From Haliotis cracherodii (Eukaryota), in assembly GCF_022045235.1 (NCBI RefSeq), contig NW_027266286.1, positions 32,302,001-32,366,000 on the forward strand: 64,000 nt of DNA, read 5' to 3'. The notes under the pieces are model-generated. The model saw only the letters and a program-made list of their open reading frames with translations. It had not been told where the DNA came from and did not search any database. Position numbers and translations under genes: made by a program. Below are positions 17,290 to 63,342 of the stretch, piece by piece (positions within the stretch are counted from its first letter, which is position 1; each line of letters begins with the position of its first letter).

Positions 17290-20200
17290 AGCTGCCTGAC
17301 ACACAGAGGTGACACCTGGGGGTTGTGAGAACACAGGTGGTGCGGTCATTACCTGATCAGGTGGTCATGTGACTGTATTGCAAATGCTCTTGGAATTTCT
17401 CTCTCAACCAACACAGGCGAGGGGAAAATGATTAGTTTATACACGTTTTATTTTACAATTGAGCTTATTGGGAGTTGACACGTTAATAATGGAAGAAAGC
17501 AGTGACATCGTGAAATGGATTAACATGGCTCCTTCCAAACTTTTTCTTTTGACACAAATCTCTTCTGAAGAAAAAATGGGGGTAAGACATTGAAGCAAGA
17601 AGTAGGCATCCACGTGGGCACCACTTGTGTTCCCCTTTTTGAAGTCTTGAAGTCTACTGTCATTATACTGTCTGAGTGTACGTGGAGTTAAAATCCTACC
17701 ATTTCGGTACAGCCTTTAGCAACCAAAGCGTGTCCAGCTGGACTATGACGTAGTAAAGGGCACTGATACGTTAACCAGACAGATTTTATATCAGAATTTT
17801 AAAAATATTACTTAGAGAGGTGGGATTAAACGTTTTAAAACGTTTATTATGTCGTACGACGATGACAGTGATCGTCATGCTGGTTCAATCACTGGTTCGT
17901 CTGCTACAGTTTCGAATATTCACACGCTATCGCGGTATAGCTGTGATATTGTTGCGACACAGACAAAACTCATTACTACCTACTCAAAGGATTATTCGAT
18001 CCAAAAGCAGCAGTTTTTGGCAACTAAATTTGTTTATGACACATGAATCTAAGTACGTAAGTACCTATACCCAAACCAAGGCGATTACTAAGCCTTCTGC
18101 GTCAGATGTCATGTTTTGTGAATAAGATTAAATGGAAGATTGACCCTGATATATTTAGACTCACCGATTAGCTTTGATAAAACTACCCGTGCTCTGAAAT
18201 TCTCACGAACGTCTTAATCAGTAGGTTGTCCCTGTGTCAGTTGATAGTATGGTATTCCTTGTCATACCATTGCAGGCATTGCACGGTAATAGTGTGAAGC
18301 CACAGCTGATATCATGTAAACACCAATATCGCTCACAACAAGATACCTACACTTTTCGCCTATCTACTTTACTAGAATCACAACTTGAATAACCATTTTG
18401 ATCATTAATTGTTCTGTTAAGGGTTGAGGACAGAAGTTAGTAAATAACTAATTAGTGCATAACTAGCTGTTTATAAGAAATGAGTGGAATCATTAGTGTA
18501 TCTGTGTACACGTGTGCTTGCGTACGTGCGTGCAATTCAGCAATTTTATAACCCTATTTTATTTATGTCTTTGATTTGCCTCAAAGAACGCAAACGTTTC
18601 TGACATACATGTAGGTATCAAACTATGAAACAATCACAGCGTAGCACTAATGGCTGTGATTGCATTTGTACACTCACATGCATGACAAACATTACATGTT
18701 TGTAGCGTAAATATTGTCAATATGAAACCTGTGACATGATTTTTCAATAACGTGTTTAAACAAAACGGAGAATGGTCTCACAATGTACAGGGTTAAAGCA
18801 TCTCTTGATATATATCTTTAAGTGGATATCTGTCTTCGTATTGACATTTGAATTTCATAAGCTGTGCGGAATTGTAAAGATGCTATGCCTTTCTGTATTG
18901 TCATAGCCGCGTGTTATTGAATATATTTTCATTGTAATCTTCGGAATAACATCTGGAAGAAATAAAGAATCTCTCTCGCCATGGATGAAATGTTATATAC
19001 TAGCACAGAGAACAGAGCAAATGTATTCGTTAAACTGCGTTAACATTTAATCAAAGTGGGCTATATGAGTTTGCCTCATCGGGAATCGGCATACTAATGA
19101 TGACTGTTGGTGTCATATTTTGCAAAACACAGAAATCCAGTTACTGCACTTCAGTTTAAAACAAACGGTCGTGATAAAGAAGACGTGTATTGGACTGTAC
19201 CCTCTGTCAATTCAGTCTGGCAGCTTGAGCCTCCATCACCAGGAAGCTCTGGGTATAATTTGGGGAAGCTTCGGTGGAGCAGCCGACGTCCTTGTGTCAG
19301 GGGAAATCTGACTTCCCAGGAGGGCATCAAACCTGGGTGTTATCCTGTTCTCAGACACGCGAACTGGGGGGATGTTTGCAATCTCACGAAGGGGAGGTAA
19401 TTCCGACCTCCGTTGTGGAACAACCATTGCGTCGAAGTTCACATGATTGACAGGACCAGCAGTTTTAGAAGCATCATGCTGTGCTTCATCTCTGGATATC
19501 TGAGAAGGATCTCGGGTTCGGGTGGCCCATGTTGTGCTTGTGGTTCTGTCTGAGCAGAAACACACAATAGTCCGAAATACTGCAGGTTGGTTTGGGTTCT
19601 GACGTATCTCTGACGAACCACAGGGACGTTGCTCCTTTAAGAAATACAAACTGCAATGTAAAAATTGTATACAGTATAACAAAAATGTTTATTCCGTTGG
19701 TATTCACAGACGAATCTCACAAGAAAAGGAACAGGTATCACATTTCAAACAACAACAAAATAAACAGCGACGTTTTCTGATACAAATCAAGCATCAGTGT
19801 TATTTCAGGAAACGCAAATGTCTGGAGAGCGTTCGTGAGGCTATGGCATCACTGATTTCAGTGTTTGATAAATTGTTATATAAGTGAATATGATCTTGTC
19901 AAATGTTTCCTTTTTTAAGAAATACTACAAGATCGACTTCGCATGGTAGCATGGGATTAACCTGACGAGCAAGCTATTAATCACTGGACTTTGTCACTGT
20001 ACGTGAATATAGATTTCGATCAACAAATATGTGCCGTAGATGAAGGCCATTCTTTGTCGAACAAGAGTTAGTCAGGACAAAGGACACTGAATGTAACTCA
20101 TCATAGCTGTCAACACATCTGTGAAGGTTCTAAGTTACCTTCGTCAGCTTTTTCTTTTTGACGCAGTAGAGAACAACCAAGAAGATTATCCCAAGGAAGC

Positions 20201-20924
20201 AAATTCCCACAACAGCAATCACAGCAATCGTGTCGGGCTGCATACTTGAGTCTTAAGTACAAAAGCTTCATGCATATGTGTACTAAATAGCTTCATAGTT
20301 ACACAGGAGGCTTACCTAGATTGTGTGTGATCACTGCTGGAATAGGGAGATGCTTTCAACACATTCATTTATACATCTGTCTAGCGATAACTGTCCTCAA
20401 TGACGTGCAACGCCCGTTACAAACTGTTGTGAATAAATAATGGTCCAACGTTCTTCATTCTCTGAACTTGTCTCTGCCCAAATGTCATCGAAATAGAATC
20501 AAAACATAATTTTTGTTATATTTTGTGCAACGTTTAAACATCTTGACGACAAATTCACCAGCAACCCGTTTCTAGGCTAACTAACAAGGGCTATGTACAT
20601 AAGCCAGCGAAGCAACTCGTGGCGTAATAGCTGCACTAAAATGAAATTAACCGATTATCAAAATTATATATGTTTTGTCTGCACAAACTACACATTAAAG
20701 AGTAAATACCTCTTTGAGTGTTTCTTGATGCATAAGCTGATGCTGAGGGCATCAGTGACCTAGATATCAACATGTAACCCGTTGTTGTTGGAGTTGCCTG
20801 CGTTGTCGTGGTTGGACACGCATACGGTCTGCGGTAGCGATGCAGCCGATGCACCACAGGACACTTCGACGTCAACTCCGGGGCTTGTAGCTGTTGGATA
20901 ACGTAGGTTGGATGAGCTGAACAT

Positions 20925-21175
20925 TGAACAGTATTCCAGTTACATCACGGCGTGTCACCTTGGTGTGAGAGGAAAGCCCATAGCGATGCAGGACTCTGAC
21001 GTTTACAAATTTTGTGAAACCCGTGAGCACGGGTATGCTGCTGATAAACCTAGAAACATAATCGGGACAAATCGGGGTTCGAACCCACGATCAAAGGTTT
21101 CGGGCGTGCCCAAGGGACGCAACTCCTGCACAACGAATTGCTGTGCCTTAGACGACCGGGACATCCGTGCTCCCA
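20925..21175 (-). mobile_element. tRNA-derived SINE (family 3, long A-B box spacing)
   Basis: Homologous to 42340-42630 and 33066-33265: gtcgtctaaggc...cccttgggcacgcc..gtgggttcgaaccc..catacccgtgctcacggg. Confidence 0.8.
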
Positions 21176-22261
21176 CCAATATAATTAACTGTAAGAATGA
21201 GGGCATATGGTTACGTACCAGTGTTGACATCGTTCTTCCAATTCATAGCATTGTGGTATAACGTATTAATCCTGACAGAATACAAAGTTAGTATATATGC
21301 TTTTACTCAAATTATGAATTGTGTTTAGAAATATATGTAGGACTTACATGGTAAATGTAGCAGCTTATGCAGGACATAGCTTAATTGTGTGTGTACATGC
21401 CTGTCCAATATGAAACAGTGAGTGAGTGAGTGAGTTAAAATTTACAGTCACATCGGCAGTATTTCAGCCATATCGTGACAATATGAAACAACCGTGGACT
21501 AACATCAGTTTAAGAACGGAAAATGCAAACGCCCATATATGCTCACAGTTAAGCTGACTCAAGAAATGACCTCCTCGTACATGTAAGTTGTTAATAAAAG
21601 TTAATTTAAGAAAGCTTCCCTTGGATGAAAATATGGATTTGACAACAAAGTCGTTATTGAAAGTACAATCAATGACTTTTGTTGCATTCCCATCCTCCAG
21701 AAGAGATATTGGGCACAGGAACCATCAGCATTGTACTGGAAACGAATGTCAAGGGCAGTTACTGTGACCTCTGACCCACAAGGCGCTGACACACTGCAGG
21801 TATTGTTGCCCTCCAACTGAACTGCGTCCGGGTAGTTATCGTTGTATAGATACAATGTAGAGCCTTGGAAGACAATGCTGTCGGAAATACTCTGGTGGAT
21901 ACTTTCTGTCGCAAACAAAAATTCAGTAGAATAAGTCAAATTATATTTTAAATTATGTCCATAAAGAATATGTATTACTATATTGGCATTGGTTGACATT
22001 ACGTTATTTAAAACCAAATACACAGGGCAACTCCATGCAACATAAACATGCATGACTATATCGGTTGACAAGTAATACGCGTCCTTCATTCTCGAACATA
22101 TTTTTACCAAATGATTAAAGTTTTAAGACAATGTGACCCATGTGCTAAGCGCTGGATTAACTTATACTTCAGTAGAACTTTGTGTACGTTGACCATATGC
22201 AGTCTACATTGACCATTGCTTTTCGACCTTTTGACAATGGCTTTCTCTTAATGTTGTGGTC

Positions 22262-22455
22262 ACAGGTGCCCCTGTCGCCTAAGTGGTTTGATTCCTATGA
22301 CGGGGTCTTCGAATACAAGATTCGGCCTGATAATGGTTCCTGGTTTGTCGGCACCATACCTGTGCTCATGGGTTTCTATTGACAACGTCTTTGGATTGTC
22401 CTCCTGCATAAAGCTGACACGCCGTGATATAACGGAGATACTCCCCACTAAACCC
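22262..22455 (+). mobile_element. SINE family 3, degenerate copy
   Basis: acaggtgcccctgtcgcctaag...ggcaccatacctgtgctcatgggtttc...gacacgccgtgata. Confidence 0.6.
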
Positions 22456-24536: not shown

Positions 24537-24538
<2 letters not shown>

Positions 24539-26588: not shown

Positions 26589-29500
26589 CTATTTCCCTCG
26601 AGGTTCGAGATACCAAACGTCTGTCTTTACTGCGCCTTTTTTGGACAACTGCGTCGCTGCTTTGTTAACAGTGTATGCTGAACGGACAGTGTGCCACATT
26701 TTAGGTACTGTGTCCACAGAAGGAGCCGCCGGAGAGTCATGAGAAGGGTAATCATCCAGCGGCTCAAGGCGCCTGGGGCGACGGACTAGTGCAGTTGTTG
26801 CAGGGGCTACTGGGGGTACTTCTGTACTCATCAGGGGAAGAACCTCCACCTGCAACACATGTCAATAATCTCGGAATAAGCGACACATTAAGTAAACAAA
26901 AGGATGCTTAGGTATTTTACAAAATGCAAAGGGCGTCTCTAAATGTTTGTTGAAACATTGTTGAAAAGTATCATATACCATTCATAAATATTCATGAAAC
27001 GCAGTATGGTCCCAAATAGTCTAGGAAATACCTGTGTTTTTCTGAACTTCCTCTTAATAACGTATCCAGCTATGACAGCAAGAACCAATACGACCAGTAC
27101 TACTGCCACTGGTATCTGCCAAGAATCTGAAGAAGAAATGTAGGATCGTTTTGAATGTACATGTCATTATTGTTTTTCAATAAGACGAAAATAATAGAAT
27201 ATTACCAAACATGAGTACCATTAGTCAGGGTCGACCTTTTTATCTCAGGGACTCCTGTATTTGAATTTAATATTTCTGTATAACCCAGAAATTGCATGTC
27301 GTTAGGGTGTTTTGTTGATATATCTGGGGATAGTCCTGTAGGTCAAGGAGTGCTTGTACCCTGGAGTGGTTCGGTGGGGGTATTTGATCCTGTAGATCCA
27401 GGAGTGCTTGTGCCCTGGGGTGGTTCTGTGGGGGTATTTGATCCTGTAGAACCAGGAGTGCTTGTACCCTGGGGTGGTTCTGCTGATGTCCCTGTGGACC
27501 TGGGGTCGACGGTGGTTACTCGTTTATCGTTTTCACAGACAGAGTTAACATTATTAGAATAGATGGAACCAGCAACGTCTTCCTCATAGGAACCAGAGCG
27601 AGTAGTGCCAGCTGGGCATGCTTCACCAGACGAAGCTTCTTCGGAATTGCAACTCATATTGATCACGTCACCGTTTGAACCTTGAATACAATAAAAAGAG
27701 AATTAATTAAATAATTAATATTAGAGATCTATGACGAATCATTGTGTACTTCACAGGTATACATGGGTATTTCGTGTATAATAGCTATTTCTAAATATAG
27801 AAGGAAGATATTCTAGGGAGGGTGGTGTAAAAAAATGTTTTGGGGCAGGTAGGTTTTAATGGAGAAAATCTGTTCCAGACAATAATGAAAAAAAACCCAC
27901 CAACATATTGCCCCAGGTGATACAACAAAATTACAGTTGACTGAAGTAGAAAAATATATTACATGCCTTGACGCTATGACTGAAATCACCTTTGATTTGT
28001 GCCCATAACCATGTTCCCTTAGTCATGTTAGATAGTGTTATCTGGACGGAGGACGTCTCGCTGGTGTAGGTGACTCCAGTGAAGTTATTCCCGGGACATA
28101 GCAATGTCTGAGAGTTGTCCCCATCAGTTATTTCCAGATTGGTGTGTGACCCGTTGGAATAGATATGGATTGTTTCTATGATGATTGATGTGTCACAGGG
28201 TGCTGCTACTCTACATGAAACATTGTTACTGGAAGTCGTGTTCTCTTCGCTTTGAATAAATACTGTCGTATAACTTGCTGTCTGGTTAGACGTAGGATCC
28301 AGTATATACGTTTCTGAAAAACAGTCGGAAATTAGTAAAAATAATCCATGTTATTAACATGTGATTTCGTCTTTAGTTTACGTCTGTACTACTACACATT
28401 CCATCCAAACTTCAGAAAATTGCGAGTGCTAAGCTACTTTTGTTATTCCTTATTTGGCACATGCATACTGCACACGCTGCATGTAAGGTGTTAGCATCAC
28501 CATATGGCTCCTAATAATCGTGGATTATTCGTGGCACAGTTAGCGAATTCCAGCAATGACAGATGTATCAGCAATGACAGACTAAATCATGAAACAAAGT
28601 AAAATTTACGTTATGAGTAGTCTTACCCAGGACACAGGAGAAATCCATGATCATGTATGTCGTGAAGGCCATGTAACCAGCGTCCACATACGTCATGTTT
28701 ACTCGCTGGCGAGTCACTGGCCTCATGCACCTTGACTTCCCTACACACGCAGATAGGTATTCAGAGAGAGATATTCCCTTATAAAGAGACTTGTAGTCGT
28801 TTGCATCGTACGTGCAACACTTCCCACGATCATAATCAGCTCCAAATGCTGCCAAGGCACACCCAAGATTTGCTTTCTTTGCAAATGCGTAAATATTTTC
28901 GATTACAATAACTTTAGGACTATCGCATGAAGGTGTAAAGAAATCCAATTCATCTGACCCATCACCATAGCAACCCACTAATTCATTTGTGAAGGATTCT
29001 GAAAATTAAAAAAATAAAAAAATATATTTTACTTTAGTTATCACTGAATGAGCGTGTTTAAGGTATATTACACGATCTGGGTAAAACGAAATACGTATAA
29101 ATTACCCAAACCCGATTGATATGAGAACATATCAGTTTTGCACATGTTATCAATAGTACTTATCAGTTTGTCAACTAAACTAAACATACAATACTGTTAC
29201 CGCCTATAGTTGTGGAGTAATACACTGGATCAATAGACACTTCCACAGAGTACATAAACAGCAACATACTCTGTCAAGTAAATAAGTTTGGCAGTGGAAT
29301 AGAGTTGGTCCACAGCATTCTATAGCTATACTGGACGTACCAGGCAGTTTAATGGATCAGGTGGTCACGTTAGGTGACCCGATGATGTGAGTCGATGCAC
29401 GCAACATCAATCATTGGATGATCATTACTGGGTGCGGTGTTAAACGCATAGCGTCTGGTTTAACGTCGCTTTGAACAGTATTTCGGTAATACCAATGAGG

Positions 29501-30893
29501 GTCAGCATGATGACGAGAGGTAGCTGAACATTTCTGAGCCTATCTGTGATGGACTGTGTTGATAGAGTTGCTTGCTAATTATGTCAGATCACAATATATA
29601 TATATTATTCTTTATAATCCCATCCGAGGTCTGCCAACGACACTGATAAATGCCTGGATCCAACTGGTATGACGACCTACTCTTGGTGGTGTAAAACGTC
29701 ATCCACAGCTGAAAATACGTCATGATTATTTGCATGTTGCTTGTCAGATATTCATTTCTTCAAGCCTTGATATTCTCCCGCAGTTGGAAAAGCAGCTTAA
29801 CAGGATATTTGCCATTAATGATCTGACCTTTAGGGAGGTAGGATTCCTTTGAGAGCCCAGATAAAAAGAAGCCATAACTTTGTCAGCTGATGGAACAGAC
29901 TTATCGTGAGTCAACTGTCATTCATAATCATATCACGTATTTTAGCAACATTTTCGTTAATGGTGGCAGGTGAATGTCTTCCCATCTTCCCGACGCAAGG
30001 GAGTTAACTGAGTTTTAAAGTCCAGTTTCCACCCTTGCCGAACTAGGCTGCAATTATGGAGTTATATTTTGGCTGGACTAACGAGTCGATGCATAGTCCA
30101 GTCGAAATCGCGCAACGAAATCCACATCCGGTTGGTAAACTGCCGTGCAGATTTCGGTCGACTGCAGGATTTGTAAAGCATGTGCTTCGCCAACTGAGCG
30201 TCGTCAGATATTTTCCAAATCTTCTCATGTTTTTAATCAAGGTGGTCACGTGATTTGATGCACTTTGCTAAGTAAGGCCCGTTTTATTACAAAATAAATC
30301 TTGATTATGTATCGGATGGATCGTCATTTCGTTTGAAACAAAACCAAATGATATGGGAGGTGGAATCTAACTGGTCAATAGGAGGGACATATAAGGGACA
30401 TAACTCGTAATAGCCACTGATGACGCTACTATCGAACCCAGATATTCCGGCCTAGTTCGGCAAGTGTGGAAACTTGACTTTTCTAGTCAGTCAACTCCCT
30501 TGCCTCGGGAAGATGATGTCTTCCTGGCCCTTCACTTCCCATCTTCCCTTCTCAGTTTTGTTCAACATAGAATACCTAGTCCTTTTTATGACTGCAGAGA
30601 TATTCAGTCTGGTGATGTATTTGGTTCAAATGCAGCATGTTAGTTGCGTAATTATTGTACTTAGACATGCACACTGATGAAGAAATACTATATACCATTC
30701 GTATTCAGGCCCATGACTTTTCAGCCACTCTGCATATATCCCTCGAGCTCGCAACATCCTGCAGTTACTGTATTTACACAAGATTTTGCTTGTATTCGTG
30801 TCACATTTTGAGGAACGGTATTATACAGGCCTATGTATACTTACCCTGAAAGAAGATGAACATGGCCAGAAATGTGGCGGTACGTCCGTTCAT
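26589..30893 (-). CDS. Receptor gene B: signal + SUEL-like + CUB-like + PT/S repeat stalk + TM + tail; premature TGA in stalk
   Basis: Exons 30893-30845 (MNGRTATFLAMFIFFQ), 24-nt 29224-29201 (VYYSTTIG), 28998-28627 (GCYG..C..VIVIENIYA..CC..CVGKSRC..YMIMDFSCVL), 28313-27990 (..VSCRVAAPCDTSIIIETI..LEITDG..LLC..WLWAQIK), 27680-~27300 (stalk, TGA at 27345-27343), 27126-27032 (TM VAVVLVVLVLAVIAGYVI-KRK), 26849-26589 (tail). The stalk-exon donor is not resolved. Confidence 0.8.
27335..27490 (-). repeat. 57-bp coding repeat (EPPQGTSTPGSTGSNTPT-type) ~2.7 copies
   Basis: Repeat within the gene B stalk exon. Confidence 0.9.
29983..30515. mobile_element. non-autonomous TIR element, ~65-bp TIRs, perfect 9-bp TSD (Mutator-like)
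   Basis: catcttcccgacgcaagggagttaactga...cttgccgaactaggc / gcctagttcggcaag...cccttgcctcgggaagatg. TSD atgtcttcc at 29974-29982 and 30516-30524. Confidence 0.85.
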
Positions 30894-31239: not shown

Positions 31240-31458
31240 CCCATGACAGTGTGGTGTCAGTTTGCAGACTGTCTGTCATTCAGCGCATTGAACAGAGCCG
31301 GGATATACTGGTAACTCGCTACCTTTGCCTCGGCACGTGTTAGATAATGCCCATGACAGTGTGGTGTCAGTTTGCAGACTGTCCGTCATTCAGCGCATTG
31401 AACAGAGCCGGGGTATACTGGTAACTCGCTACCTTTGCCTCGGCACGTGTTAGGATAA
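31240..31458 (+). repeat. ~110-bp tandem duplication upstream of gene B
   Basis: cccatgacagtgtggtgtcag...cctcggcacgtgttag occurs twice. Confidence 0.92.
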
Positions 31459-44700: not shown

Positions 44701-47700
44701 CCTCACCTGCGTCTTTTGTAGCTTCTGATGGAGGTAACCTGACAGTTGCTTGTGGGAAGAAGATACCACCAGATGATTACACAACAGCCTCAGCAACACA
44801 GTCCACAAGAAGCCGCCTGACGACTCAAAAGAGTTCACCTAATTACACGACTACGTCTTACTCAAAATCGACATCAGATTATCCTGCTACTATCAGGGCA
44901 ACAAATAGCAGTGGGATTTCAAAATCATCGACTGTGTCCATCTCCGCTATAGCTACTGGGTTAACGATTCCACATTCAATCTCAGGGTCTGGAGGAAGCA
45001 CGAAAATACATTTGAGCAAAACCAACTCCATGTCTCATTCATCTACTGGCTTTAAATTGACCAGGTCTTCCTCACCTTTACTCACAACGTTTGGTAGAAT
45101 ACAGGCTTCAAGTACAACATCAACCTCATTATCTACAAACATGCCATCTTCACTTCCACCAACGTCTTCGCAATCACATTCAACAACAGAAACAGTTTCC
45201 CCTTCCCTGACACATTCGACCACAGGAGGACGACTACAGTCTTCCAGACACACATCATACTCGACTCGTCCCACTCAAGGGCAATCTTTATCTTCGTTTA
45301 AAGCGTTATCGTCTTCAAACATTACACTATTTCGTCTCATAAAAACAACAAAACCATCTTTACATCCACTGACAGTGTCGATCGCGGGAGGCCCTGAAAC
45401 TGCCCAGATATCGACAACGTCAACGAGTGGAAGATTAAGGTCTACAAACATCATATCATTCTCACCAGTAGACATAGAAGGAAAAGGCTCATCTTCCCCA
45501 ACTGTGTCAACGATTGGAAGGATGCAGTCCTCCAAAGCCACATCCGTTTCCTCGGAAACCGGACAGGAAACATCCCCATCCGCAACAACGCCTATGCCAT
45601 CAACACAGGGTGGAATACAGCACTCGACAACCACATCTTCATCTTCCATCACTGACAACGGCAAGCCCTCCAACATCTCTACTCACACTTCAGCAAGCCA
45701 ACACATGCTAACAGCTTTAATGTTCGGTGCATCAACCTCAACAAAATCTTGGCAAAGATTGTCGTCAACTACAGTGACATCCAAGCCACCACCTGTTGAT
45801 GAAACAACACCGGATACAAGTAGGTAATATACATAACATATGATGGGAAAATGAAACAAAGATTGGATTGCCGTTGTGCTTGCTATTATGCCCTTGTTTA
45901 ACATCCCAGAGAATGAATGAAGAATGATTTTGACATTTGTGGGAAGACCGTTCATACTGTATCGAAAAAAATAGTTATAATGATTGTATAGTTTTTGGAA
46001 TGACAGATTCGTACTGACTATAGAACGTACCATTGCACAACACATGTATTTCGTCTTCAGTGTCATTAATATATGTTTACCCCAAACACTTATTGCATGA
46101 ATTATAATTAACTTTGTATCATTTCCCTATCGCAAAGATAATGTGCAAGGTATATATTGCTGAATCATACTGAATAGTATCACCAATCGTCTGCAAACGT
46201 TACACTATTTCGTCTCATAAAAACAACAAAACCATCTTTACATCCACTGACAGTGTCGATCGCGGGAGGCCCTGAAACTGCCCAGATATCGACAACGTCA
46301 ACGAGTGGAAGATTAAGGTTTACAAACATCACATCATTCTCACCAGTAGACATAGAAGGAAAAGGCTCATCTTCCCCAACTGTGTCAACGATTGGAAGGA
46401 TGCAGTCCTCCAAAGCCACATCCGTTTCCTCGGAAACCGGACAGGAAACATCCCCATCCGCAACAACGCCTATGCCATCAACACAGGGTGGAATACGGCA
46501 CTCGACAACCACATCTTCATCTTCCTTCACTGACAACGGCAAGCCCTCCAACATCTCTACTCACACTTCAGCAACCCAACCCATGTTAACAGCTTTAATG
46601 TTCGGTGCATCAACCTCAACAAAATCTTGGCAAAGATTGTCGTCAACTACAGTGACATCCAAGCCACCACCTGTTGATGAAACAACACCGGATACAAGTA
46701 GGTAATATACATAACATATTATGGGAAAATAAAACAAAGATTGGATTGCCGTTGTGCTTGCTATTATGCCCTTGTTTAACATCCCAGAGAATGAATGAAG
46801 AATGATTTTGACATTTGTGGGAAGACCGTTCATACTGTATCGAAAAAAATAGTTATAATGATTGTATAGTTTTTGGAATGACAGATTCGTACTGACTATA
46901 GAACGTACCATTGCACAACACATGTATTTCGTCTTCAGTGTCATTAATATATGTTTACCCCAAACACTTATTGCATGTATTATAATTAACTTTGTATCAT
47001 TTCCCTATCGCAAAGATAATGTGCAAGGTATATATTGCTGAATCATACTGAACAGTATCACCAATCGTCTGCAAACGTTACACTATTTCGTCTCATAAAA
47101 ACAACAAAACCATCTTAACATCCACTGACAGTGTCGATCGCGGGAGGCCCTGAAACTGCCCATACATCGACAACGTCAACGAGTGGAAGATTAAGGTTTA
47201 CAAACATCACATCATTCTCACCAGTAGACATAGAAGGAAAAGGCTCATCTTCCCCAACTGTGTCAACGATTGGAAGGATGCAGTCCTCCAAAGCCACATC
47301 CGTTTCCTCGGAAACCGGACAGGAAACATCCCCATCCGCAACAACGCCTATGCCATCAACACAGGGTGGAATACGGCACTCGACAACCACATCATCTTCC
47401 ATCACTGACAACGGCAAGCCCTCCAACATCTCTACTCACACTTCAGCAACCCAACCCATGTTAACAGCTTTAATGTTCGGTGCATCAACCTCAACAAAAT
47501 CTTGGCAAAGATTGTCGTCAACTACAGTGACATCCAAGCCACCACCTGTTGATGAAACAACACCGGATACAAGTAGGTAATATACATAACATATGATGGG
47601 AAAATGAAACAAAGATTGGATTGCCGTTGTGCTTGCTATTATGCCCTTGTTTAACATCCCAGAGAATGAATGAAGAATGATTTTGACATTTGTGGGGAGA

Positions 47701-50700
47701 CCGTTCATACTGTATCGAAAAAAATAATTATAATGATTGTATAGTTTTTGGAATGACAGATTCGTACTGACTATAGAACGTACCATTGCACAACACATGT
47801 ATTTCGTCTTCAGTGTCATTAATATATGTTAACCCCAAACACTTATTGCATGTATTATAATTAACTTTGTATCATTTCCCTATCGCAAAGATAATGTGCA
47901 AGGTATATATTGCTGAATCATACTGAATAGTATCCCCAATCGTCTGCAAACGTTACACTATTTCGTCTCATAAAAACAACAAAACCATCTTTACATCCAC
48001 TGACAGTGTCGATCGCGGGAGGCCCTGAAACTGCCCAGATATCGACAACGACAACGAGTGGAAGATTAAGGTCTACAAACATCATATCATTCTCACCAGT
48101 AGACACAGAAGGAAAAGGCTCATCTTCCCCAACTGTGTCAACGATTGGAAGGATGCAGTCCTCCAAAGCCACATCCGTTTCCTCGGAAACCGGACAGGAA
48201 ACATCCCCATCCGCAACAACGCCTATGCCATCAACACAGGGTGGAATACAGCACTCGACAACCACATCTTCATCTTCCTTCACTGACAACGGCAAGCCCT
48301 CCAACATCTCTACTCACACTTCAGCAAGCCAACACATGCTAACAGCTTTAATGTTCGGTGCATCAACCTCAACAAAATCTTGGCAAAGATTGTCGTCAAC
48401 TACAGTGACATCCAAGCCACCACCTGTTGATGAAACAACACCGGATACAAGTAGGTAATATACATAACATATGATGGGAAAATGAAACAAAGATTGGATT
48501 GCCGTTGTGCTTGCTATTATGCCCTTGTTTAACATCCCAGAGAATGAATGAAGAATGATTTTGACATTTGTGGGAAGACCGTTCATACTGTATCGAAAAA
48601 AATAATTATAATGATTGTATAGTTTTTGGAATGACAGATTCGTACTGACTATAGAACGTACCATTGCACAACACATGTATTTCGTCTTCAGTGTCATTAA
48701 TATATGTTAACCCCAAACACTTATTGCATGTATTATAATTAACTTTGTATCATTTCCCTATCGCAAAGATAATGTGCAAGGTATATATTGCTGAATCATA
48801 CTGAATAGTATCCCCAATCGTCTGCAAACGTTACACTATTTCGTCTCATAAAAACAACAAAACCATCTTTACATCCACTGACAGTGTCGATCGCGGGAGG
48901 CCCTGAAACTGCCCAGATATCGACAACGTCAACGAGTGGAAGATTAAGGTTTACAAACATCACATCATTCTCACCAGTAGACATAGAAGGAAAAGGCTCA
49001 TCTTCCCCAACTGTGTCAACGATTGGAAGGATGCAGTCCTCCAAAGCCACATCCGTTTCCTCGGAAACCGGACAGGAAACATCCCCATCCGCAACAACGC
49101 CTATGCCATCAACACAGGGTGGAATACGGCACTCGACAACCACATCTTCATCTTCCTTCACTGACAACGGCAAGCCCTCCAACATCTCTACTCACACTTC
49201 AGCAACCCAACCCATGTTAACAGCTTTAATGTTCGGTGCATCAACCTCAACAAAATCTTGGCAAAGATTGTCGTCAACTACAGTGACATCCAAGCCACCA
49301 CCTGTTGATGAAACAACACCGGATACAAGTAGGTAATATACATAACATATGATGGGAAAATAAAACAAAGATTGGATTGCCGTTGTGCTTGCTATTATGC
49401 CCTTGTTTAACATCCCAGAGAATGAATGAAGAATGATTTTGACATTTGTGGGAAGACCGTTCATACTGTATCGAAAAAAATAATTATAATGATTGTATAG
49501 TTTTTGGAATGACAGATTCGTACTGACTATAGAACGTACCATTGCACAACACATGTATTTCGTCTTCAGTGTCATTAATATATGTTTACCCCAAACACTT
49601 ATTGCATGTATTATAATTAACTTTGTATCATTTCCCTATCGCAAAGATAATGTGCAAGGTATATATTGCTGAATCATACTGAAAAGTATCACCAATCGTC
49701 TGCAAACGTTACACTATTTCGTCTCATAAAAACAACAAAACCATCTTAACATCCACTGACAGTGTCGATCGCGGGAGGCCCTGAAACTGCCCATACATCG
49801 ACAACGTCAACGAGTGGAAGATTAAGGTTTACAAACATCACATCATTCTCACCAGTAGACATAGAAGGAAAAGGCTCATCTTCCCCAACTGTGTCAACGA
49901 TTGGAAGGATGCAGTCCTCCAAAGCCACATCCGTTTCCTCGGAAACCGGACAGGAAACATCCCCATCCGCAACAACGCCTATGCCATCAACACAGGGTGG
50001 AATACGGCACTCGACAACCACATCTTCATCTTCCATCACTGACAACGGCAAGCCCTCCAACATCTCTACTCACACTTCAGCAACCCAACCCATGTTAACA
50101 GCTTTAATGTTCGGTGCATCAACCTCAACAAAATCTTGGCAAAGATTGTCGTCAACTACAGTGACATCCAAGCCACCACCTGTTGATGAAACAACACCGG
50201 ATACAAGTAGGTAATATACATAACATATGATGGGAAAATGAAACAAAGATTGGATTGCCGTTGTGCTTGCTATTATGCCCTTGTTTAACATCCCAGAGAA
50301 TGAATGAAGAATGATTTTGACATTTGTGGGGAGACCGTTCATACTGTATCGAAAAAAATAATTATAATGATTGTATAGTTTTTGGAATGACAGATTCGTA
50401 CTGACTATAGAACGTACCATTGCACAACACATGTATTTCGTCTTCAGTGTCATTAATATATGTTAACCCCAAACACTTATTGCATGTATTATAATTAACT
50501 TTGTATCATTTCCCTATCGCAAAGATAATGTGCAAGGTATATATTGCTGAATCATACTGAATAGTATCCCCAATCGTCTGCAAACGTTACACTATTTCGT
50601 CTCATAAAAACAACAAAACCATCTTTACATCCACTGACAGTGTCGATCGCGGGAGGCCCTGAAACTGCCCAGATATCGACAACGACAACGAGTGGAAGAT

Positions 50701-53700
50701 TAAGGTCTACAAACATCATATCATTCTCACCAGTAGACACAGAAGGAAAAGGCTCATCTTCCCCAACTGTGTCAACGATTGGAAGGATGCAGTCCTCCAA
50801 AGCCACATCCGTTTCCTCGGAAACCGGACAGGAAACATCCCCATCCGCAACAACGCCTATGCCATCAACACAGGGTGGAATACAGCACTCGACAACCACA
50901 TCTTCATCTTCCTTCACTGACAACGGCAAGCCCTCCAACATCTCTACTCACACTTCAGCAAGCCAACACATGCTAACAGCTTTAATGTTCGGTGCATCAA
51001 CCTCAACAAAATCTTGGCAAAGATTGTCGTCAACTACAGTGACATCCAAGCCACCACCTGTTGATGAAACAACACCGGATACAAGTAGGTAATATACATA
51101 ACATACGATGGGAAAATGAAACAAAGATTGGATTGCCGTTGTGCTTGCTATTATGCCCTTGTTTAACATCCCAGAGAATGAATGAAGAATGATTTTGACA
51201 TTTGTGGGAAGACCGTTCATACTGTATCGAAAAAAATAATTATAATGATTGTATAGTTTTTGGAATGACAGATTCGTACTGACTATAGAACGTACCATTG
51301 CACAACACATGTATTTCGTCTTCAGTGTCATTAATATATGTTAACCCCAAACACTTATTGCATGTATTATAATTAACTTTGTATCATTTCCCTATCGCAA
51401 AGATAATGTGCAAGGTATATATTGCTGAATCATACTGAATAGTATCCCCAATCGTCTGCAAACGTTACACTATTTCGTCTCATAAAAACAACAAAACCAT
51501 CTTTACATCCACTGACAGTGTCGATCGCGGGAGGCCCTGAAACTGCCCAGATATCGACAACGACAACGAGTGGAAGATTAAGGTCTACAAACATCATATC
51601 ATTCTCACCAGTAGACACAGAAGGAAAAGGCTCATCTTCCCCAACTGTGTCAACGATTGGAAGGATGCAGTCCTCCAAAGCCACATCCGTTTCCTCGGAA
51701 ACCGGACAGGAAACATCCCCATCCGCAACAACGCCTATGCTATCAACACAGGGTGGAATACAGCACTCGACAACCACATCTTCATCTTCCTTCACTGACA
51801 ACGGCAAGCCCTCCAACATCTCTACTCACACTTCAGCAAGCCAACACATGCTAACAGCTTTAATGTTCGGTGCATCAACCTCAACAAAATCTTGGCAAAG
51901 ATTGTCGTCAACTACAGTGACATCCAAGCCACCACCTGTTGATGAAACAACACCGGATACAAGTAGGTAATATACATAACATATGATGGGAAAATGAAAC
52001 AAAGATTGGATTGCCGTTGTGCTTGCTATTATGCCCTTGTTTAACATCCCAGAGAATGAATGAAGAATGATTTTGACATTTGTGGGGAGACCGTTCATAC
52101 TGTATCGAAAAAAATAATTATAATGATTGTATAGTTTTTGGAATGACAGATTCGTACTGACTATAGAACGTACCATTGCACAACACATGTATTTCGTCTT
52201 CAGTGTCATTAATATATGTTAACCCCAAACACTTATTGCATGTATTATAATTAACTTTGTATCATTTCCCTATCGCAAAGATAATGTGCAAGGTATATAT
52301 TGCTGAATCATACTGAATAGTATCCCCAATCGTCTGCAAACGTTACACTATTTCGTCTCATAAAAACAACAAAACCATCTTTACATCCACTGACAGTGTC
52401 GATCGCGGGAGGCCCTGAAACTGCCCAGATATCGACAACGACAACGAGTGGAAGATTAAGGTCTACAAACATCATATCATTCTCACCAGTAGACACAGAA
52501 GGAAAAGGCTCATCTTCCCCAACTGTGTCAACGATTGGAAGGATGCAGTCCTCCAAAGCCACATCCGTTTCCTCGGAAACCGGACAGGAAACATCCCCAT
52601 CCGCAACAACGCCTATGCTATCAACACAGGGTGGAATACAGCACTCGACAACCACATCTTCATCTTCCTTCACTGACAACGGCAAGCCCTCCAACATCTC
52701 TACTCACACTTCAGCAAGCCAACACATGCTAACAGCTTTAATGTTCGGTGCATCAACCTCAACAAAATCTTGGCAAAGATTGTCGTCAACTACAGTGACA
52801 TCCAAGCCACCACCTGTTGATGAAACAACACCGGATACAAGTAGGTAATATACATAACATATGATGGGAAAATGAAACAAAGATTGGATTGCCGTTGTGC
52901 TTGCTATTATGCCCTTGTTTAACATCCCAGAGAATGAATGAAGAATGATTTTGACATTTGTGGGAAGACCGTTCATACTGTATCGAAAAAAATAATTATA
53001 ATGATTGTATAGTTTTTGGAATGACAGATTCGTACTGACTATAGAACGTACCATTGTACAACACATGTATTTCGTCTTCAGTGTCATTAATATATGTTTA
53101 CCCCAAACACTTATTGCATGAATTATAATTAACTTTGTATCATTTCCCTATCGCAAAGATAATGTGCAAGGTTTGTATTGCTGAATCATACTGAATAGTA
53201 TCATCAAACATAAGAACATACATAGTAAATCATTTGCCGTTTCCTTCCAGGTAAATCAGACAACACTGATGACAAGGTTGCCTTTAGTAAGTATACTTAC
53301 AAAGAATATTGAATGTTATCGGCAGTTGTGTTTCATGTGTTGACGGGGATGAATATAGTAAACTACATGGGAGCTAAACGCCTAAGACAATTCCTTCCGT
53401 TCCAGTACTGGAGGTAATCACAAGCTTGACGGGAGCAGCCCTCCTCCTTCTGATGGTGATCACTACAGCAATGTGCTTGTGCTACAACAAAAGGTATTAT
53501 ATATCTTGTGAGAGAGTATTTATTGCCCATTGTAAGATCGTGGATCCTCAATCAATAATGAGCTGCAATATTAATTTACGAATTGTGTGTAGGTCCATTT
53601 CCTTGTACGAGAGTAACAAATGATTTCAACAGCATTAAGAATTATAAAATATGTCTGTTGCTTGTACATTGAATGCGACTTTAATAAGGTTTACAAACAT

Positions 53701-56614
53701 ATACGTTAATGCGATGCATTATCCTACTTACATCTCTGATAACCATGCTGAAATCACAGCGTACCAAGCTGAGAGTCGTGCAGCCATAGAATAGCAGTTC
53801 TGTCTGACACGTTAGTTGCAGCGTTAAAGTGAACGTATCATGAAAAACAGCAATAGATTTTTCGTACACCATTATGTAGGCAGTATAATGTACAATACGA
53901 TTGCCTAGGAACAAAGTGTAAAAACATCAAGTTACCGCTGTTGCGCGTAATTTAAAATACGATTTGTGTGGTCTCTATTTGTAAGAACCCAAACTATGGA
54001 ATAATTGCCCTTACAACAGCAAGTATAAAGTGTCAAAACAAAACCAATGCAGCACTGCGACATGTTGGCCATTTGTCGCAATGTCGCGTTGACACATTGT
54101 CGCGCTTTGAATCATATTGTTTTTACTTAACAAAAGGGCGACAATGCGACAATGTGACATTTTTCAAGGTCAAAATATGTCGCATTGTCGCTCTTTGGTA
54201 AAATAAAAATAATATTATTCAACTCGAAAAATGGTCAAAATGTCGCGTTGTCGCACTGTCGCTCTTTTGTTAATTTTGACACTTTTTACTTGTTTATGTA
54301 AAGGCAACAATGCGACAACGCGACAGTGTCCCTTCTTGGATTCCATACAAAAGGAGGCGTGGTTTACTTAGCCTGCAGGTTAATTGGGTATAACCACCAG
54401 CCGGGTACAGAATATACCTATTCGTTTCATTAGTCGTTGGGATATATATACTCTTCCAAAAAAAAGAAACTATACATGCATAACTTTGATGATCCTGGAC
54501 CTGATCGCTTTTGCATGGCAGAATTTGTTTTCTTAAGTAATCGTTAAATTTCATTAAATTTTCGAGTAAGCATGCAGATTGCCGAAACGTAATGTTGTGA
54601 CGTCGCAACGGAGCAATTCGCCAAAACGCAGCTGCAATGCCATAAAACTGCATCATGCAAATTTCTGAACTGTCGTGACAATACCTGTCAGCAGCCTCAC
54701 AAGTACCCAGACTACGTCTAATATCGGATCAGACTGTTCGAAACTGTCACAGAGTTTCTGCGTCAGAACAACGTGCCTGCGCTACCCTGGCCTGTCCGCT
54801 CGCCAGACTTGTCCCTTATTGAACATTTATGGGACATGCTGGATCGTTGGGTCCGTCAACGTCAACCACCGCCACAGACACTTCAGGAATTGTTTGTGGC
54901 GCTTGAGCAGGATTGGCAGAACATCCCCCGGAGTGTTATTCGGACTTCGCTGCCAAGAGGTGATAGCAGCTCGAGGAAGCCATAATCGTTACTTTCCACC
55001 TACCCCGGACGTCTTTGCGCCTGTATTTGTTACATGCATATTGTACAGCAACAATTAACCTATAAGTACCACTAGTTACACTATTTATGAAATCTAAACT
55101 CGAAAAATAAACCCAGTTGCAATCCTGATGTATAGTTTCTTTTTTTAAGAGTATATAATATAATAATTGAATGGATTTCACATATGTCAAGAGTATGGCT
55201 AGTGGTGGCGTGTCAAGTAACCTTGGTTTAACGTGAATTATAATTTTCACGTAAAATATTTACTTTGCAATTTTAGGGGCGCGGGTTCCAAAACAAAACA
55301 AATGAGATGAGTACCGTAACGCGAAGAATAAACGCATTTAAAGAAATAGCAAGTTTCGCAAATCGTTTTCTCACCGAATATTGAACTCAGTTTGTGATAT
55401 GAATTGCCTTTGTCACATATCTGTTGTGGGGATCAATTTTGGAAGTAATTTCCTCCAACAAGACCTTATATGGAGCCTCTGTATACAAAGGCTCCGCCTC
55501 CGCTGTATTTTCGTGTCAGGATTTTAAAGTGATAGACAGGATAAAAGGACAAATAAACCTTATTTACGCGCCTCGATGTTTTGAATACGACATTAACATT
55601 AACAATGTTACGATCTATCCATACCTGCAAAAGTTGTATATACCCAAGAGACTTGCACTCTAAAATTCCATTATGTCCGGTTTATCGTTAGACCGTAAGT
55701 ACAGTCAAGCCTCGTTAATCCGACACTCGTTAATCCGACAATCGGCTTTATCCGACACTAATGATGGGAACCGATTAAATCAGTGCTATTTAGACCCACT
55801 AATCCGACAGTGTCGCACTCCGACTCCGACACACTTAATTTGCAACGAATTACCAAAATCTCTCATATAACAACGGCTCCAGAGATAAACTTGCTTAACA
55901 ATAAACAATTAATGCTTTAAATAAAGAAAACAGTATTAATCACATGCTTGGATTACCTCAATCTCATTGAAATCAGATACAAGTTCTCGCTGTCGCCGAG
56001 GATATCCCATTACAGCTTTTCGCTAACTATGACCTGCCAATGAAATGACCAACAGGAAGTCAACGTTAGCCACTTAGAAAGCAGCTCTCCTAAGCTTTGC
56101 GGTTCCAGTATCAAACTTGCGACTGCCATTCCAGACTATGCTTTTTAAAGTATTTTGAATAAGTCATACAGTCCGTAACAGTTGTGTCGAGCTTTAGAGG
56201 TTGCATGATTAGAAAACATATTCCACTAACAATGTAACATAACAATATGAACATTTCATTTTTATTTTTTATTACGTGTTTGTATCGTTATCTATCGTGT
56301 AGTTGTTCGATTTTCTATCACGAACGTCGATACTACTTAAATTCGTTTATCCGACATACTCGTGAATCCGACATAATCGTATGCATCAACCATGTCGGAT
56401 AAACGGGACTTGACTGTATAAGAATCAGTTAGACAGGTCAACTCATTTTGAGTTTAATATCAATGCCTTGTACTGTTGCAGGATGCACGAGCTGCAACGG
56501 AATTCTCGAAAAAGGAATAAACTGTCAGGAACCAACGTATCTGCATTGGAATTAAAGAGAAACTCTGTTGTATCATTAGAATCTGGATATGATTCCATTT
56601 CAGCGTTGCGCTGA
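41786..56614 (+). CDS. Receptor gene C: signal + SUEL-like + CUB-like + very long mucin stalk + TM + ITIM-like tail; in-frame TGA at codon 6
   Basis: Exons 41786-41858 (MKQLL*CISTAALVLQASNLHVCEG), 43006-43386 (ACY..C..C..DCC..C..YVSLEYDCVH, GC donor), 44155-44511 (CUB-like), 44722-45819 (S/T-rich), optional repeated 444-nt exons, 53251-53286, 53406-53493 (TM), 56482-56614 (tail ..SLESGYDSISALR*). AATAAA at ~56690. All phases are compatible. Confidence 0.8.
42340..42630 (-). mobile_element. tRNA-derived SINE (family 3), most complete copy
   Basis: Minus strand ggggacacgggtggccctgtcgtctaaggcg...ggtttgaatccc...ctggaatactgttaaaagcgacgtgaaaaacccaactcactc. Confidence 0.8.
45309..53208 (+). repeat. 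878-bp tandem array x9 (mucin exon 3' half + intron)
   Basis: Near-identical units; matching positions at 45375, 46253, 47131, 48006, 48884, 49762, 50640, 51518, 52396 (copy 3 has a 3-nt deletion). Confidence 0.98.
54670..55000 (+). mobile_element. Tc1/mariner transposase C-terminal fragment
   Basis: LPWPVRSPDLSLIEHLWDMLDRWVRQRQPPPQTLQELFVALEQDWQNIP (SPDLxPIE motif). Confidence 0.88.
55702..56416. mobile_element. pogo/Tigger-type MITE
   Basis: TA|cagtcaagcctcgttaatccgaca ... tgtcggataaacgggacttgactg|TA, with internal atccgaca subrepeats. Confidence 0.85.
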
Positions 56615-59024: not shown

Positions 59025-59187
59025 GGGGCGGTCGGGTAGCCTTGTGGTTAAAACGTTCGCTCGTCATGCCGAAGACCCGTGTTCGATTCCCGATATGGGT
59101 ACAATATGTGAACCCATTTCTGGTGTCCCCCGCAGTTATTTTGCTGGAATATTGCTAAAAGCGGCGTAAAACCATACTCACTCACTC
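59025..59187 (+). mobile_element. tRNA-derived SINE (family 2)
   Basis: A box tagccttgtggttaa, B box gttcgattcc, body gctggaatattgctaaaagcggcgtaaaa and an (actc)n tail. Confidence 0.88.
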
Positions 59188-61793: not shown

Positions 61794-63342
61794 ATGAGGA
61801 TAGTTTCACTGCTCTTCACAGTGATTCTGGTCCCACTTGTGCCGCCAGCATCTTCAGGTAAGCCCTATCTTTCTCGGGTTGGGCAAGCATTATTTAAAGT
61901 TCTTGCATGCCAGTTTATGCTAACATCCTTTAATACTGGCTTCATTACGAAACACGCTGATTACCAACCGATCATTCTACGGCACGACATGCTAAACTGG
62001 TAATTTAAGTATTTTATATTTTTCAAAATGGCGGAGGTGATCAAGGGGCGTGTACATATTCAAACTCCTCATTCGGGCATTGAAACGCCAGCTGCTGCCT
62101 CAATATGTTGTCAGTCGACGCTTGCTAAGAATTCCTCTGTACTCAGTTGTGTATGTACTTACGTAACAACTTCTACCCTAGATTCAGTCTGTACATCGTG
62201 AACGTCCTGAAAAAGTTCATTTTGGGTACATGTTGAGGCCTGGCATGTGTTTTCCGAGATTTATTTTTTCAATGTTTAGCCCACGTATGTTTTATAAGAG
62301 TCAAAACGGGTTGCTCAGCTGGCCATATCTGAATGTCTCCGCGATCGCGAGACGGGTCCGATGCACAGACGCGTTGTCATCTTGGACGCAGTATTGTTTA
62401 TCAGATAAATCATATTTTACCATAAGGGCTACCTCCCAACATGATCAGCCACAAAGAGCCAACACCCGTTCCAGGTGATGCAGCCCCCATATCGTAATTG
62501 ATACTCAACGACGTGTTTTGTCAATATTGGTTTGGGATACAGACTAGCACTTGACAAGGTACATCCTCGCGCACATTTTCTTTCTGATATTGTGCCTAAA
62601 ACATTTATGTAATTGAATGTGTGTGCAAAACAAGCTGATCTGTGACCTGAACTGTCAGGCTGAACTGAACCTTCATGTCCCTACCGTAATAAAAGGGGGT
62701 ATTGATGTCTCCCAGATCTTTTCCTATGTACATATGGTTGTCTATGTTTCTGTTACGAATGAAACAAACGGCAAAAATGTTTGTCAAAGACAAAATGTTG
62801 AATGTGTTTGTCATTAATGTTCACATGCTGTCAACAGCATGTTTGTATAGTACCTGGTTCATCAACCATCAAGTTATAGGTGGGTATTTGCCTCCATCTT
62901 CAAAGCTCCTGAAAAATATCTTGTACATTTGTTTCAGAGTTGAAGCTGGTGCACATGAATGGGTCAGCTATCCAAGTCTGCAAGGAAACCCTGTGTTATC
63001 AAGACACCTATGACGTGCAGTGCGACAAGGATTGGTTTGCACCAATTAGAAACACATTTTCCCTTAAAAACCCTGCGTTTTCATCAGCTAACAATTGCAC
63101 AGGCCAGAATGCATACCCCAAAGTTTGTTGTGATGTGAATCCCACTGACTGCAGTTTTACCAGTGTTAAGGACTTTGACAAGATAAGAGATGTGTGTTCG
63201 GGGAAGACCCATTGCACGGGTCAGAGAGCACCGTGGCACCCTGTGTATGCCTATAAACCCAATATAAACTGTCCATATCAACAAGGACTGACAACAGTGC
63301 TGACAACACAGTATGTGACGACAGAGTACATGTGTGTACCAT
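61794..63342 (+). CDS. Receptor/lectin gene D (5' part): signal + SUEL-like domain, open
   Basis: Exons 61794-61857 (MRIVSLLFTVILVPLVPPASS G) and 62938-63342 (LCYQDTYDVQC..C..VCC..DC..IRDVCSGKTHC..C..YVTTEYMCVP), both phase 1. The gene continues past the window end. Confidence 0.85.

Follow-up and report, generated by a model that had tools for sequence, protein, structure and literature searches.

A cluster of SUEL-like and CUB-like membrane protein genes in the abalone Haliotis cracherodii belongs to an apparently undescribed family

Gene Organization of the Cluster

In this study, a window of 64,000 nucleotides (nt) from Haliotis cracherodii (RefSeq assembly GCF_022045235.1, contig NW_027266286.1, positions 32,302,001 to 32,366,000, forward strand) was analyzed, and all coordinates below are positions in that window. 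It was found to contain four paralogous genes, here named A, B, C, and D, of a family of single-pass membrane proteins with a SUEL-like head, a CUB domain, and a serine/threonine-rich (S/T) stalk. The family is real and apparently undescribed; the SUEL and CUB domains themselves are known, and what appears to be new is their combination and variant form. An earlier sequence-only reading of the window had proposed four paralogous phase-1 head exons, and these were confirmed with their splice sites, on the minus strand in A and B and on the plus strand in C and D. The exons are given below; proteins are cited by record number (P0001 and so on).

Gene A
19236..19634 (-), cytoplasmic tail exon, carries LPPL (window ~19390-19400)
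20139..20251 (-), transmembrane exon
20779..20890 (-), exon with the last CUB strand (VxCG) and a short Thr stalk, 112 nt
21547..21905 (-), CUB-like exon, frameshift near 21700, two open reading frames (ORFs) of 52.9 and 41.5 bits
22663..~23034 (-), SUEL-like exon, frameshift near 22772, 78% to H. asinina P0010
26364..26403 (-), candidate signal-peptide exon, bounds approximate, without orthologue support

Gene B
26589..26849 (-), tail exon, with RRLEPL similar to the LPP[LI] motif of the family
27032..27126 (-), transmembrane exon
27360..27680 (-), last CUB strand and stalk, 54-nt repeats
27990..28313 (-), CUB-fold exon, modelled on the H. rufescens orthologue P0001
28627..28998 (-), SUEL-fold exon, 372 nt, without the sugar-site Glu/Lys and without the C4-C7 Cys pair
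30845..30893 (-), signal-peptide exon

Gene C
42216..42252 (+), signal exon; the RefSeq model begins 11 codons earlier
43006..43386 (+), SUEL-like exon, 381 nt, GC donor
44155..44511 (+), second domain, probably CUB but very divergent, with weak sequence support
44722..45819 (+), first mucin-like stalk exon
46254..52840 (+), eight duplicated frame-symmetric stalk exons of 441-444 nt
53251..53286 (+), juxtamembrane exon, 36 nt
53406..53493 (+), transmembrane exon
56482..56614 (+), tail exon with SGYDSI, resembling an immunoreceptor tyrosine-based inhibition motif (ITIM-like)

Gene D
61794..61857 (+), signal-peptide exon, similar to the P0008 N-terminus
62938..63342 (+), SUEL-like exon, 405 nt; the remainder of the gene lies beyond the window

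The pattern C[YF]..C..C..CC..[YF]xxxx[YF]xC, read earlier from all four heads, was present in each of them, in A only across a frame break. The CxGKxxC motif attributed to A was formed only across the frameshift, with no intact copy. Second exons, for which ~110-120 amino acids (aa) had been proposed, were present in B (108 codons), C (119 codons), and A (~120 codons), that of C being devoid of the CxV..DG pattern. Stalk, transmembrane (TM), and tail exons were located after the second exon in A, B, and C, as had been described, the type-I membrane architecture thereby being supported, and in named relatives of D the head was followed by a CUB-like domain and a stalk. The matching exon plans proposed for the four genes were incomplete: A is not an intact receptor, and the signal exon of D and the eight extra stalk exons of C had gone unmentioned. 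The exon models of B and C were consistent with named RefSeq proteins, and the head exon of B matched H. rufescens LOC124153106 at 97%.

Gene A carries frameshifts and is, judged from its sequence, probably a decaying pseudogene. Comparison with its H. asinina counterpart P0010 (tblastn) placed the two frame changes near 22772, within CxGKxxC, and near 21700. A third frameshift is probable in the VxCG exon, because 112 nt lie there between two phase-1 junctions; an alternative acceptor at 20916 keeps the frame and loses the VxCG strand. No recognisable 5' end or acceptor was found for domain 1, where similarity to P0010 and P0027 ends at ~23034 with no matching upstream piece. In P0010 itself, which is 238 aa long, neither a signal peptide nor a TM segment is evident. 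An assembly error behind the frameshifts was considered unlikely, since gene C (1893 codons) and the located exons of the neighboring C-type lectins (CTLs) are open, and the A-like record P0027 is likewise frame-broken.

Extent of the Family

A family profile was searched against 1.84 billion representatives at E<=0.001 and gave 54 matches, 52 of which were genuine relatives; P0017 (a bacterial-type PKD/CHU protein) and P0031 (a plant leucine-rich repeat protein) had no domain in the refined profile and were rejected as spurious. A further homologue search, confined to lengths of 834-2380 aa, returned two Haliotis proteins, both already known. Twenty-six of the 52 relatives were longer than 215 aa, and these comprised 21 proteins, largely those of the training set, with both head and second domain, 2 of the C type, and 3 in which the head leads straight onto a stalk. 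Tandem SUEL-CUB modules (2-4) were found in P0011, P0012, and P0013, both modules of P0011 standing before one TM segment. A TM segment was present in 22 of the 34 proteins of at least 200 aa, isoforms included, with one hydrophobic segment listed per protein and a threshold that missed the likely TM of P0009.

For an independent examination of the window heads, a profile was built from 49 relatives' domains, every named Haliotis protein being excluded, and was run on 2181 six-frame segments. The relatives had first been gathered with the window-exon profile, so that the 49-domain profile is independent in sequence and not in selection. It scored 92.4 bits for B, 70.8 and 22.1 bits for the two ORFs of A, 31.9 bits for D, and 27.1 bits for C; 20 shuffles gave at most 11.0 bits. 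The similarity of the four heads is thus beyond chance at the level of sequence, with a pairwise identity of 18-26% among them. No fifth head copy was found in the window with this profile. A domain-2 profile of 21 sequences, built in the same way, found the second exons of A and B; that of gene C was unmatched at E<=1.

The family probably reaches beyond Haliotis, because its relatives are many and divergent. That it is neither a described nor a Pfam-covered family, as the sequence-only reading had supposed, held up. No member passed the Pfam gathering scores (SUEL PF02140, 31.4 bits; CUB PF00431, 21.4 bits), and no description of a SUEL-CUB-stalk family was found in literature that left out subscription journals and in which supplementary gene lists could mention the loci.

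SUEL-Like Head

The SUEL-like and CUB-like folds that had been proposed were borne out for gene B by AlphaFold models, VIA, and Foldseek. The models cover gene B, and the heads of A, C, and D were assigned by profile homology. The B head, modelled with 39 sequences, had a mean predicted local distance difference test (pLDDT) score of 93.6. In the VIA comparison with 48161 chains, the top 8 were all of the rhamnose-binding lectin (RBL) type, with Z from 7.8 to 5.2, followed by the next fold at 4.4. The Z values were 7.8 for SUL-I, 7.5-7.6 for latrophilins, 7.1 for CSL3, 6.9 for both P113 and the RIPR complex, and 5.2 for the rice beta-galactosidase C-domain. The best structural match of the B head was latrophilin-3 (Z 8.2, root-mean-square deviation (rmsd) 3.2, 86 residues aligned), and Foldseek ranked the LAT-1 lectin domain (E 0.006) first for the isolated head. 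Z values of this size are middling, yet the ranking of the model is clean and consistent with the sequence evidence.

On the side of sequence, all seven PDB matches of the family profile were RBL or latrophilin domains (best E 0.0024), and the three top Atlas clusters for the head had SUEL in 10-36% of their members. The 4-sequence window profile reached merely stellacyanin (E 0.48) and CSL2 (E 0.53) in the PDB, and the stellacyanin match was rejected. No Pfam SUEL or CUB was found in the window exons at E<=10. Three of 55 proteins matched SUEL at 15.8-17.5 bits, under the 31.4-bit cut-off.

RBL domains have an eight-cysteine pattern paired C1-C3, C2-C8, C4-C7, and C5-C6. We examined it in 58 domains (4 from the window, 5 from named Haliotis proteins, and 49 from other library relatives), excluding the isoforms P0002-P0006, the frame-broken P0027, the two spurious matches, and partial domains. 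C1, C2, C5, C6, and C8 were present in 56-58 of the 58. Cys4 and Cys7 occurred together in 50 domains, including A and D, were both missing from 8 domains that are not independent of one another, including B and C, and never occurred singly. Such paired loss fits the RBL C4-C7 disulfide given in the available text of PMC3269628. The CxGxxxC motif was found in 50/58 domains. The extra CC noticed earlier was confirmed, the trio Cys46/Cys60/Cys61 being complete in 57/58. This suggests one added Cys pair in an enlarged loop 1. The head has a length of ~120 residues vs ~95 in RBL.

The residues of the sugar site were counted in the register of the family-profile alignment to PDB RBL sequences. The absence of YGR and DPC, also noticed earlier, was verified: the Arg-equivalent column was never R (A38, S7, others), the DPC of the RBL motif DPCxxTYKY occurred in 0/58 domains, and the string YGR stood anywhere in only one. 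Sugar is bound in CSL3 by Glu7/Tyr27/Lys86/Gly83 and in latrophilin-1 by Glu42/Tyr63/Lys120/Gly117, as listed in the text available of PMC3269628. Glu at the position after Cys1 was found in none of 56 filled positions (Tyr 45, Phe 5, other 6), Lys at the Lys120 equivalent in none of 58 (N32/T8/H5/D4/Q3/S3/I3), and Tyr at the Tyr63 equivalent in 4/58. In the latrophilin-1 RBL, E42D and E42Q lowered rhamnose affinity ~80-fold (Kd from 1.78 to 141-144 mM), and E42A, E42R, K120R, and K120A abolished rhamnose binding (PMC2430599, accessible portion). The label of 'membrane glycan sensors' given to these proteins by the sequence-only reading is therefore unsupported, since the Glu and Lys needed for rhamnose or galactose binding are absent. 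From its residues, the head appears to keep the RBL scaffold with the canonical monosaccharide site lost, which places it outside the sugar-binding RBL lectins.

Tyr10, Lys40 (51/58), Asp67 (58/58), and TNYM were conserved in the heads, and Lys40 and Asp67 may be structural or new-site residues. It is possible but doubtful that the family acts in pattern recognition, its receptors binding glycans of microbes or of self at a non-canonical site that has been remodelled. In favor of this, the fold is lectin-derived, the conserved residues could form a new pocket, the multigene family shows pseudogenisation and adjoins CTLs with the EPN motif, and gene C carries one ITIM-like motif. Set against these are the absence in all domains of two residues that were both required in the latrophilin-1 RBL (PMC2430599, in the portion available), and the conserved Lys and Asp may be charges with a structural role in the interior, comparable to Arg65/Lys120 of latrophilin-1. 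Nor are ITIMs and the corresponding activation motifs (ITAMs) enriched, and the counterpart of gene C in H. asinina does not keep the ITIM-like SGYDSI of the tail.

Second Domain and Cytoplasmic Tails

In the 455-residue model of P0001, residues ~148-252 matched CUB-containing structures in all of the top 22 rows (Z 10.1-8.4, rmsd ~2.6 over ~102 residues). The Cry-toxin and other beta-sandwich rows returned by Foldseek for the same model (TM-score ~0.1, rmsd >15) were rejected as an artefact of its long disorder. The CUB fold of the second domains of A and D rests on profile homology, relatives of D reaching E 5e-10 against the family profile of domain 2. The nearest Atlas clusters of the second domain of gene C were eukaryotic and included one record from a mollusc and two from annelids, which we treat as a lead only. 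The best Pfam CUB score was 18.9 bits, in 1/55 proteins, under the 21.4 cut-off. CUB domains of the Ca2+-binding type have the acidic ligands Glu/Asp/Asp. The consensus of 21 CUB-like domains contained no conserved YD or SD when judged by eye.

The tails ranged from 31 to 478 aa. LPP[LI] was present in 6 of 20 tails (gene A, P0026, P0033, P0035, P0037, and P0055) against a shuffled mean of 0.09, and none of 1000 shuffles reached 6; some of the tails are related, and the motif had been chosen by eye beforehand. It may correspond to the ANKRA2-binding PxLPxI/L, which by eye strictly fits just P0055 and the tail of gene A. A literature search on LPPL/LPPI gave nothing relevant. A second short motif, (T/I)API, was seen in 3/20 tails.

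Stalks of Genes B and C

The stalk of gene B was found to contain 54-nt coding repeats (window 27334-27482), each of which closes with a splice donor (27468 GT, 27414 GC, and 27360 GT). The stalk length would thus be set by the choice of an alternative 5' splice site, and the H. rufescens isoforms of B carry one or three 54-nt units. An in-frame TGA in this stalk was rejected as a nonsense mutation, as it lies past the last donor and the H. rufescens isoforms exit at upstream repeat donors.

Of the 1861 residues aligned between spliced gene C and P0006, a RefSeq protein of H. cracherodii, 1860 were identical; the RefSeq protein lacks a piece of 31 residues and has its start 11 codons earlier. 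The GC-AG intron after the head exon (window 43386, +) agreed with RefSeq proteins. The stalk is encoded in a tandem array (window 45308-53200, +) of nine 878-nt exon and intron units that are 97-100% identical. RefSeq models P0003-P0006 use the repeat exons as coding. The H. asinina gene C uses a different stalk repeat, which suggests that the array is a lineage-specific expansion. In the ectodomain of gene C (window 43006-44760), the head was seen by eye to have nine Cys, and domain 2 together with the next strand five, hinting at an inter-domain disulfide; the head of P0047 also has nine Cys. A Tc1/mariner-like fragment (window 54722-54982, +; DDE_3 match E 6e-5) was observed in the last intron of the gene.

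Such stalks bear on the view that these proteins are membrane-tethered mucins of a glycocalyx, in which the head would cap or oligomerise and the glycosylated stalk would act as barrier, lubricant, or anti-adhesive. The ~1500 S/T-repeat residues of C, which arose by exon duplication and appear in many RefSeq isoforms (X3, X16, X17), and the variable stalk of B speak for it. We consider it unlikely for the family, in which most stalks are short (~70-100 aa in B), the tails have an enriched common motif, and three proteins carry 2-4 tandem modules, an arrangement that ligand binding fits better than a mucin role.

Age and Conservation of the Paralogues

In a tree of the 58 heads, the H. asinina proteins P0010 and P0007 paired with A and C, respectively, P0008/P0009 with D, and P0001 with B. 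B and D fell in a starred 9-row set without A and C, and C in a starred 6-row set together with other library relatives. Since every head of the window stands beside a named relative, the paralogues are old on this tree, and their duplications precede the split from H. asinina. Counterparts of A, C, and D in H. asinina showed 73-78% identity, and the A-, C-, and D-like genes lie together on one H. asinina scaffold. B and C share a scaffold in H. rufescens. In H. cracherodii, a D-like copy (127/134) was found on another scaffold than C.

The claim that the family is rapidly diversifying was not borne out: the paralogues are deeply divergent, and the orthologues are ordinarily conserved. Between H. 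cracherodii and H. rufescens, 119/123 residues of the head and 98/107 of domain 2 were identical in B, and 126/126 and 116/118, respectively, in C. The same counts bear on polymorphic self/non-self or parasite receptors under balancing selection, like PTC2 of Biomphalaria, a role that we hold to be very unlikely. Clustered single-pass TM paralogues without a Pfam domain recall PTC2 (PMC11426442, available text), the CUB exon of B is more divergent than its other parts, and the cluster holds a pseudogene; the C head, however, is identical in the two species.

Neighboring C-Type Lectins and Other Features

The window was also found to contain five CTL genes.

182-1194 (-), CTL1, EPN, signal exon not located
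5954-7397 (-), CTL2, EPN, last exon not located
10830-12756 (-), CTL3, EPN
15438-17289 (-), CTL4, EPN
32789-35018 (-), CTL5, secreted single-domain, EPN/WAD, last exon not located

The exons of all five matched Pfam Lectin_C (PF00059) at 36-46 bits vs a cut-off of 22.6. EPN was conserved in all of them, and WHD, FAD, YAD, WAD, and WAD were present instead of WND. The located exons splice without internal stops; the signal exon was located in 4/5, and a terminal exon was not located for three. The five CTLs share an exon plan, CTL3 and CTL4 having a short additional 3' exon.

The sequence-only reading had described the receptor genes as interleaved with five soluble CTLs. Five CTLs do exist, but four form a tandem block (182-17289) outside the cluster, and just CTL5 lies between B and C. 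Among 55 family proteins, Lectin_C was listed in none, so that no fusion was found. Adjacency to a CTL is cheap because abalones have many of them, an abalone transcriptome having given >60 perlucin-like hits (PMC6003135, in its available part). A functional pairing of receptors and CTLs is unsupported. A 'lectin complex', in which secreted CTLs would opsonise microbes for capture by the SUEL-CUB receptors, with the linkage kept for co-regulation, is hardly probable and the least so of the readings considered here. It draws on the adjacency itself, with CTL5 between B and C, and on the CUB domains of MASP, which bind lectin collagen stalks (PDB 3pob was among the CUB structural matches). The CTLs of the window have no collagen stalk, four of the five are a separate array, and the D-like copy stands on another scaffold.

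Non-coding minisatellites were observed in CTL introns at 33684-33999 (period 35 nt) and 15914-16264 (74 nt), and others at 13274-13466 (43 nt), 4995-5188 (17 nt), and 31240-31459 (110 nt). A 134-N assembly gap lies within the CTL2 intron (window ~6248-6382), and a Tc1/mariner-like transposase fragment at 40131-41004 (-) gave a helix-turn-helix match of E 5e-6. A short interspersed repeat that ends in 'actcactcactc'-type runs recurred, e.g., at 59040-59190 and 63860-64000, and is presumably an abalone short interspersed nuclear element (SINE).

Discussion

Protein-ligand recognition or adhesion is the most likely role of the SUEL-CUB receptors in our analysis, and we give it about an even chance of being correct. 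The proteins would be type-I surface proteins with a signal peptide, a SUEL/RBL head, a CUB, an S/T stalk, one TM, and a disordered tail without an enzyme domain. The head, an RBL scaffold minus its monosaccharide pocket and plus a longer loop 1 with an extra Cys pair, would bind a protein, either a counter-receptor carried by a different cell or a partner that is secreted or belongs to the matrix, as latrophilin does with teneurin and a Toll-like receptor. A further surface, for binding or oligomerisation, would come from the CUB. The stalk would set how far the head projects, tuned by splicing through the repeat donors of B and the eight duplicated exons of C, and short motifs in the tail may recruit adaptors. 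The old paralogues probably bind different ligands, and the CTL neighbors would be dispensable. Throughout this scheme we infer the O-glycosylation, the protein ligand, the adhesion or co-receptor role, and the function of the tail. Precedents for protein binding by RBL domains exist in the PDB complexes 8suf, 6vhh, and 6ska. Latrophilin-teneurin and LAT-1-TOL-1 complexes are described in the available part of bioRxiv 10.1101/2023.05.04.539414, and the authors of PMC2430599, in the portion available, suggested that receptor RBLs may bind proteins, EVA-1 being a further precedent.

Several observations weigh against protein-ligand recognition by a SUEL-CUB family. The other 26 of the 52 relatives are short (<=215 aa), too short for their architecture to be read. 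Foldseek returned nothing at E<=0.001 for the isolated B head, and the head Z values, below or near 8, may according to VIA reflect just a common arrangement. Domain 2 of gene C is weakly supported, with an hhalign E of 0.27 (Cys and Trp in register) and Atlas scores below 0.9, the rank-3 cluster being 44% CUB at 0.88. Tyr10, Lys40, Asp67, and TNYM may form a new sugar site elsewhere in the head, and gene C, with its ~1500-residue stalk, could be mainly a membrane mucin. No common signalling motif was found in the 20 tails, in which ITIM-like motifs occurred in 2/20 (2.3 expected) and ITAMs in 0/20, and ITIM/ITAM signalling was accordingly rejected as a family trait.

The family resembles several known systems and differs from each. 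It shares with SUEL/RBL lectins (PF02140; SUL-I 5h4s, CSL3 2zx0) the fold (Z 7.1-7.8), the Cys skeleton, CxGxxxC, and the terminal YxxxxYxC; unlike them, it is membrane-anchored with a CUB, has a head of ~120 aa with an extra Cys pair, lacks YGR/DPC and Glu/Lys, and reaches 17.5 vs 31.4 bits. Latrophilins (ADGRL; 2jx9, 6vhh, 8suf) are likewise receptors tipped at the N-terminus by an RBL and gave the best structural matches, whereas the abalone proteins are single-pass with no olfactomedin, GAIN, or seven-transmembrane domain listed, and mammalian latrophilin-1 retains Glu42/Lys120. EVA-1/C21orf63 is also single-pass, a co-receptor without an enzymatic tail and with RBL domains without the sugar residues (PMC2430599, in the text available); it has two tandem RBL domains, whereas the abalone proteins have one RBL-like domain followed by a CUB and a mucin stalk, and no sequence match to it was listed. 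The CUBs of neuropilin, NETO2, Kremen1, cubilin, spermadhesin, and C1s/MASP share the fold of domain 2 (Z 8.4-10.1), but at 5-18% identity and without a preceding SUEL head, and their Ca2+ ligands look absent by eye in the abalone consensus. The PTC1/PTC2 genes of Biomphalaria are likewise clustered gastropod single-pass TM paralogues with few recognisable domains (PMC11426442, part available); the abalone orthologues are well conserved, and the likeness is one of organisation only.

The family comprises at least 52 clusters (50% identity) that fall under Pfam cut-offs and are labelled 'uncharacterized' or 'serine-rich adhesin-like'. Counting by InterPro/Pfam gave 3 SUEL lectins in Aplysia (PMC9334734, available portion). 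The profile and the fold assignment allow the family to be counted and tested in available genomes and transcriptomes, and they call for caution with the label of glycan sensor. The RBL fold was apparently repurposed away from sugar once more here, in a SUEL-CUB-mucin architecture that was not found described. As a wider idea, quite unlikely in our estimate, mollusks may possess a family invisible to Pfam in which a lectin fold became a variable protein-recognition module on a splice-tunable stalk, used in cell-cell, gamete, or self/non-self recognition. If that were true, the family would be a candidate for the missing molluscan allorecognition or parasite-recognition receptors, with disulfide-clamped loops that differ per paralogue.

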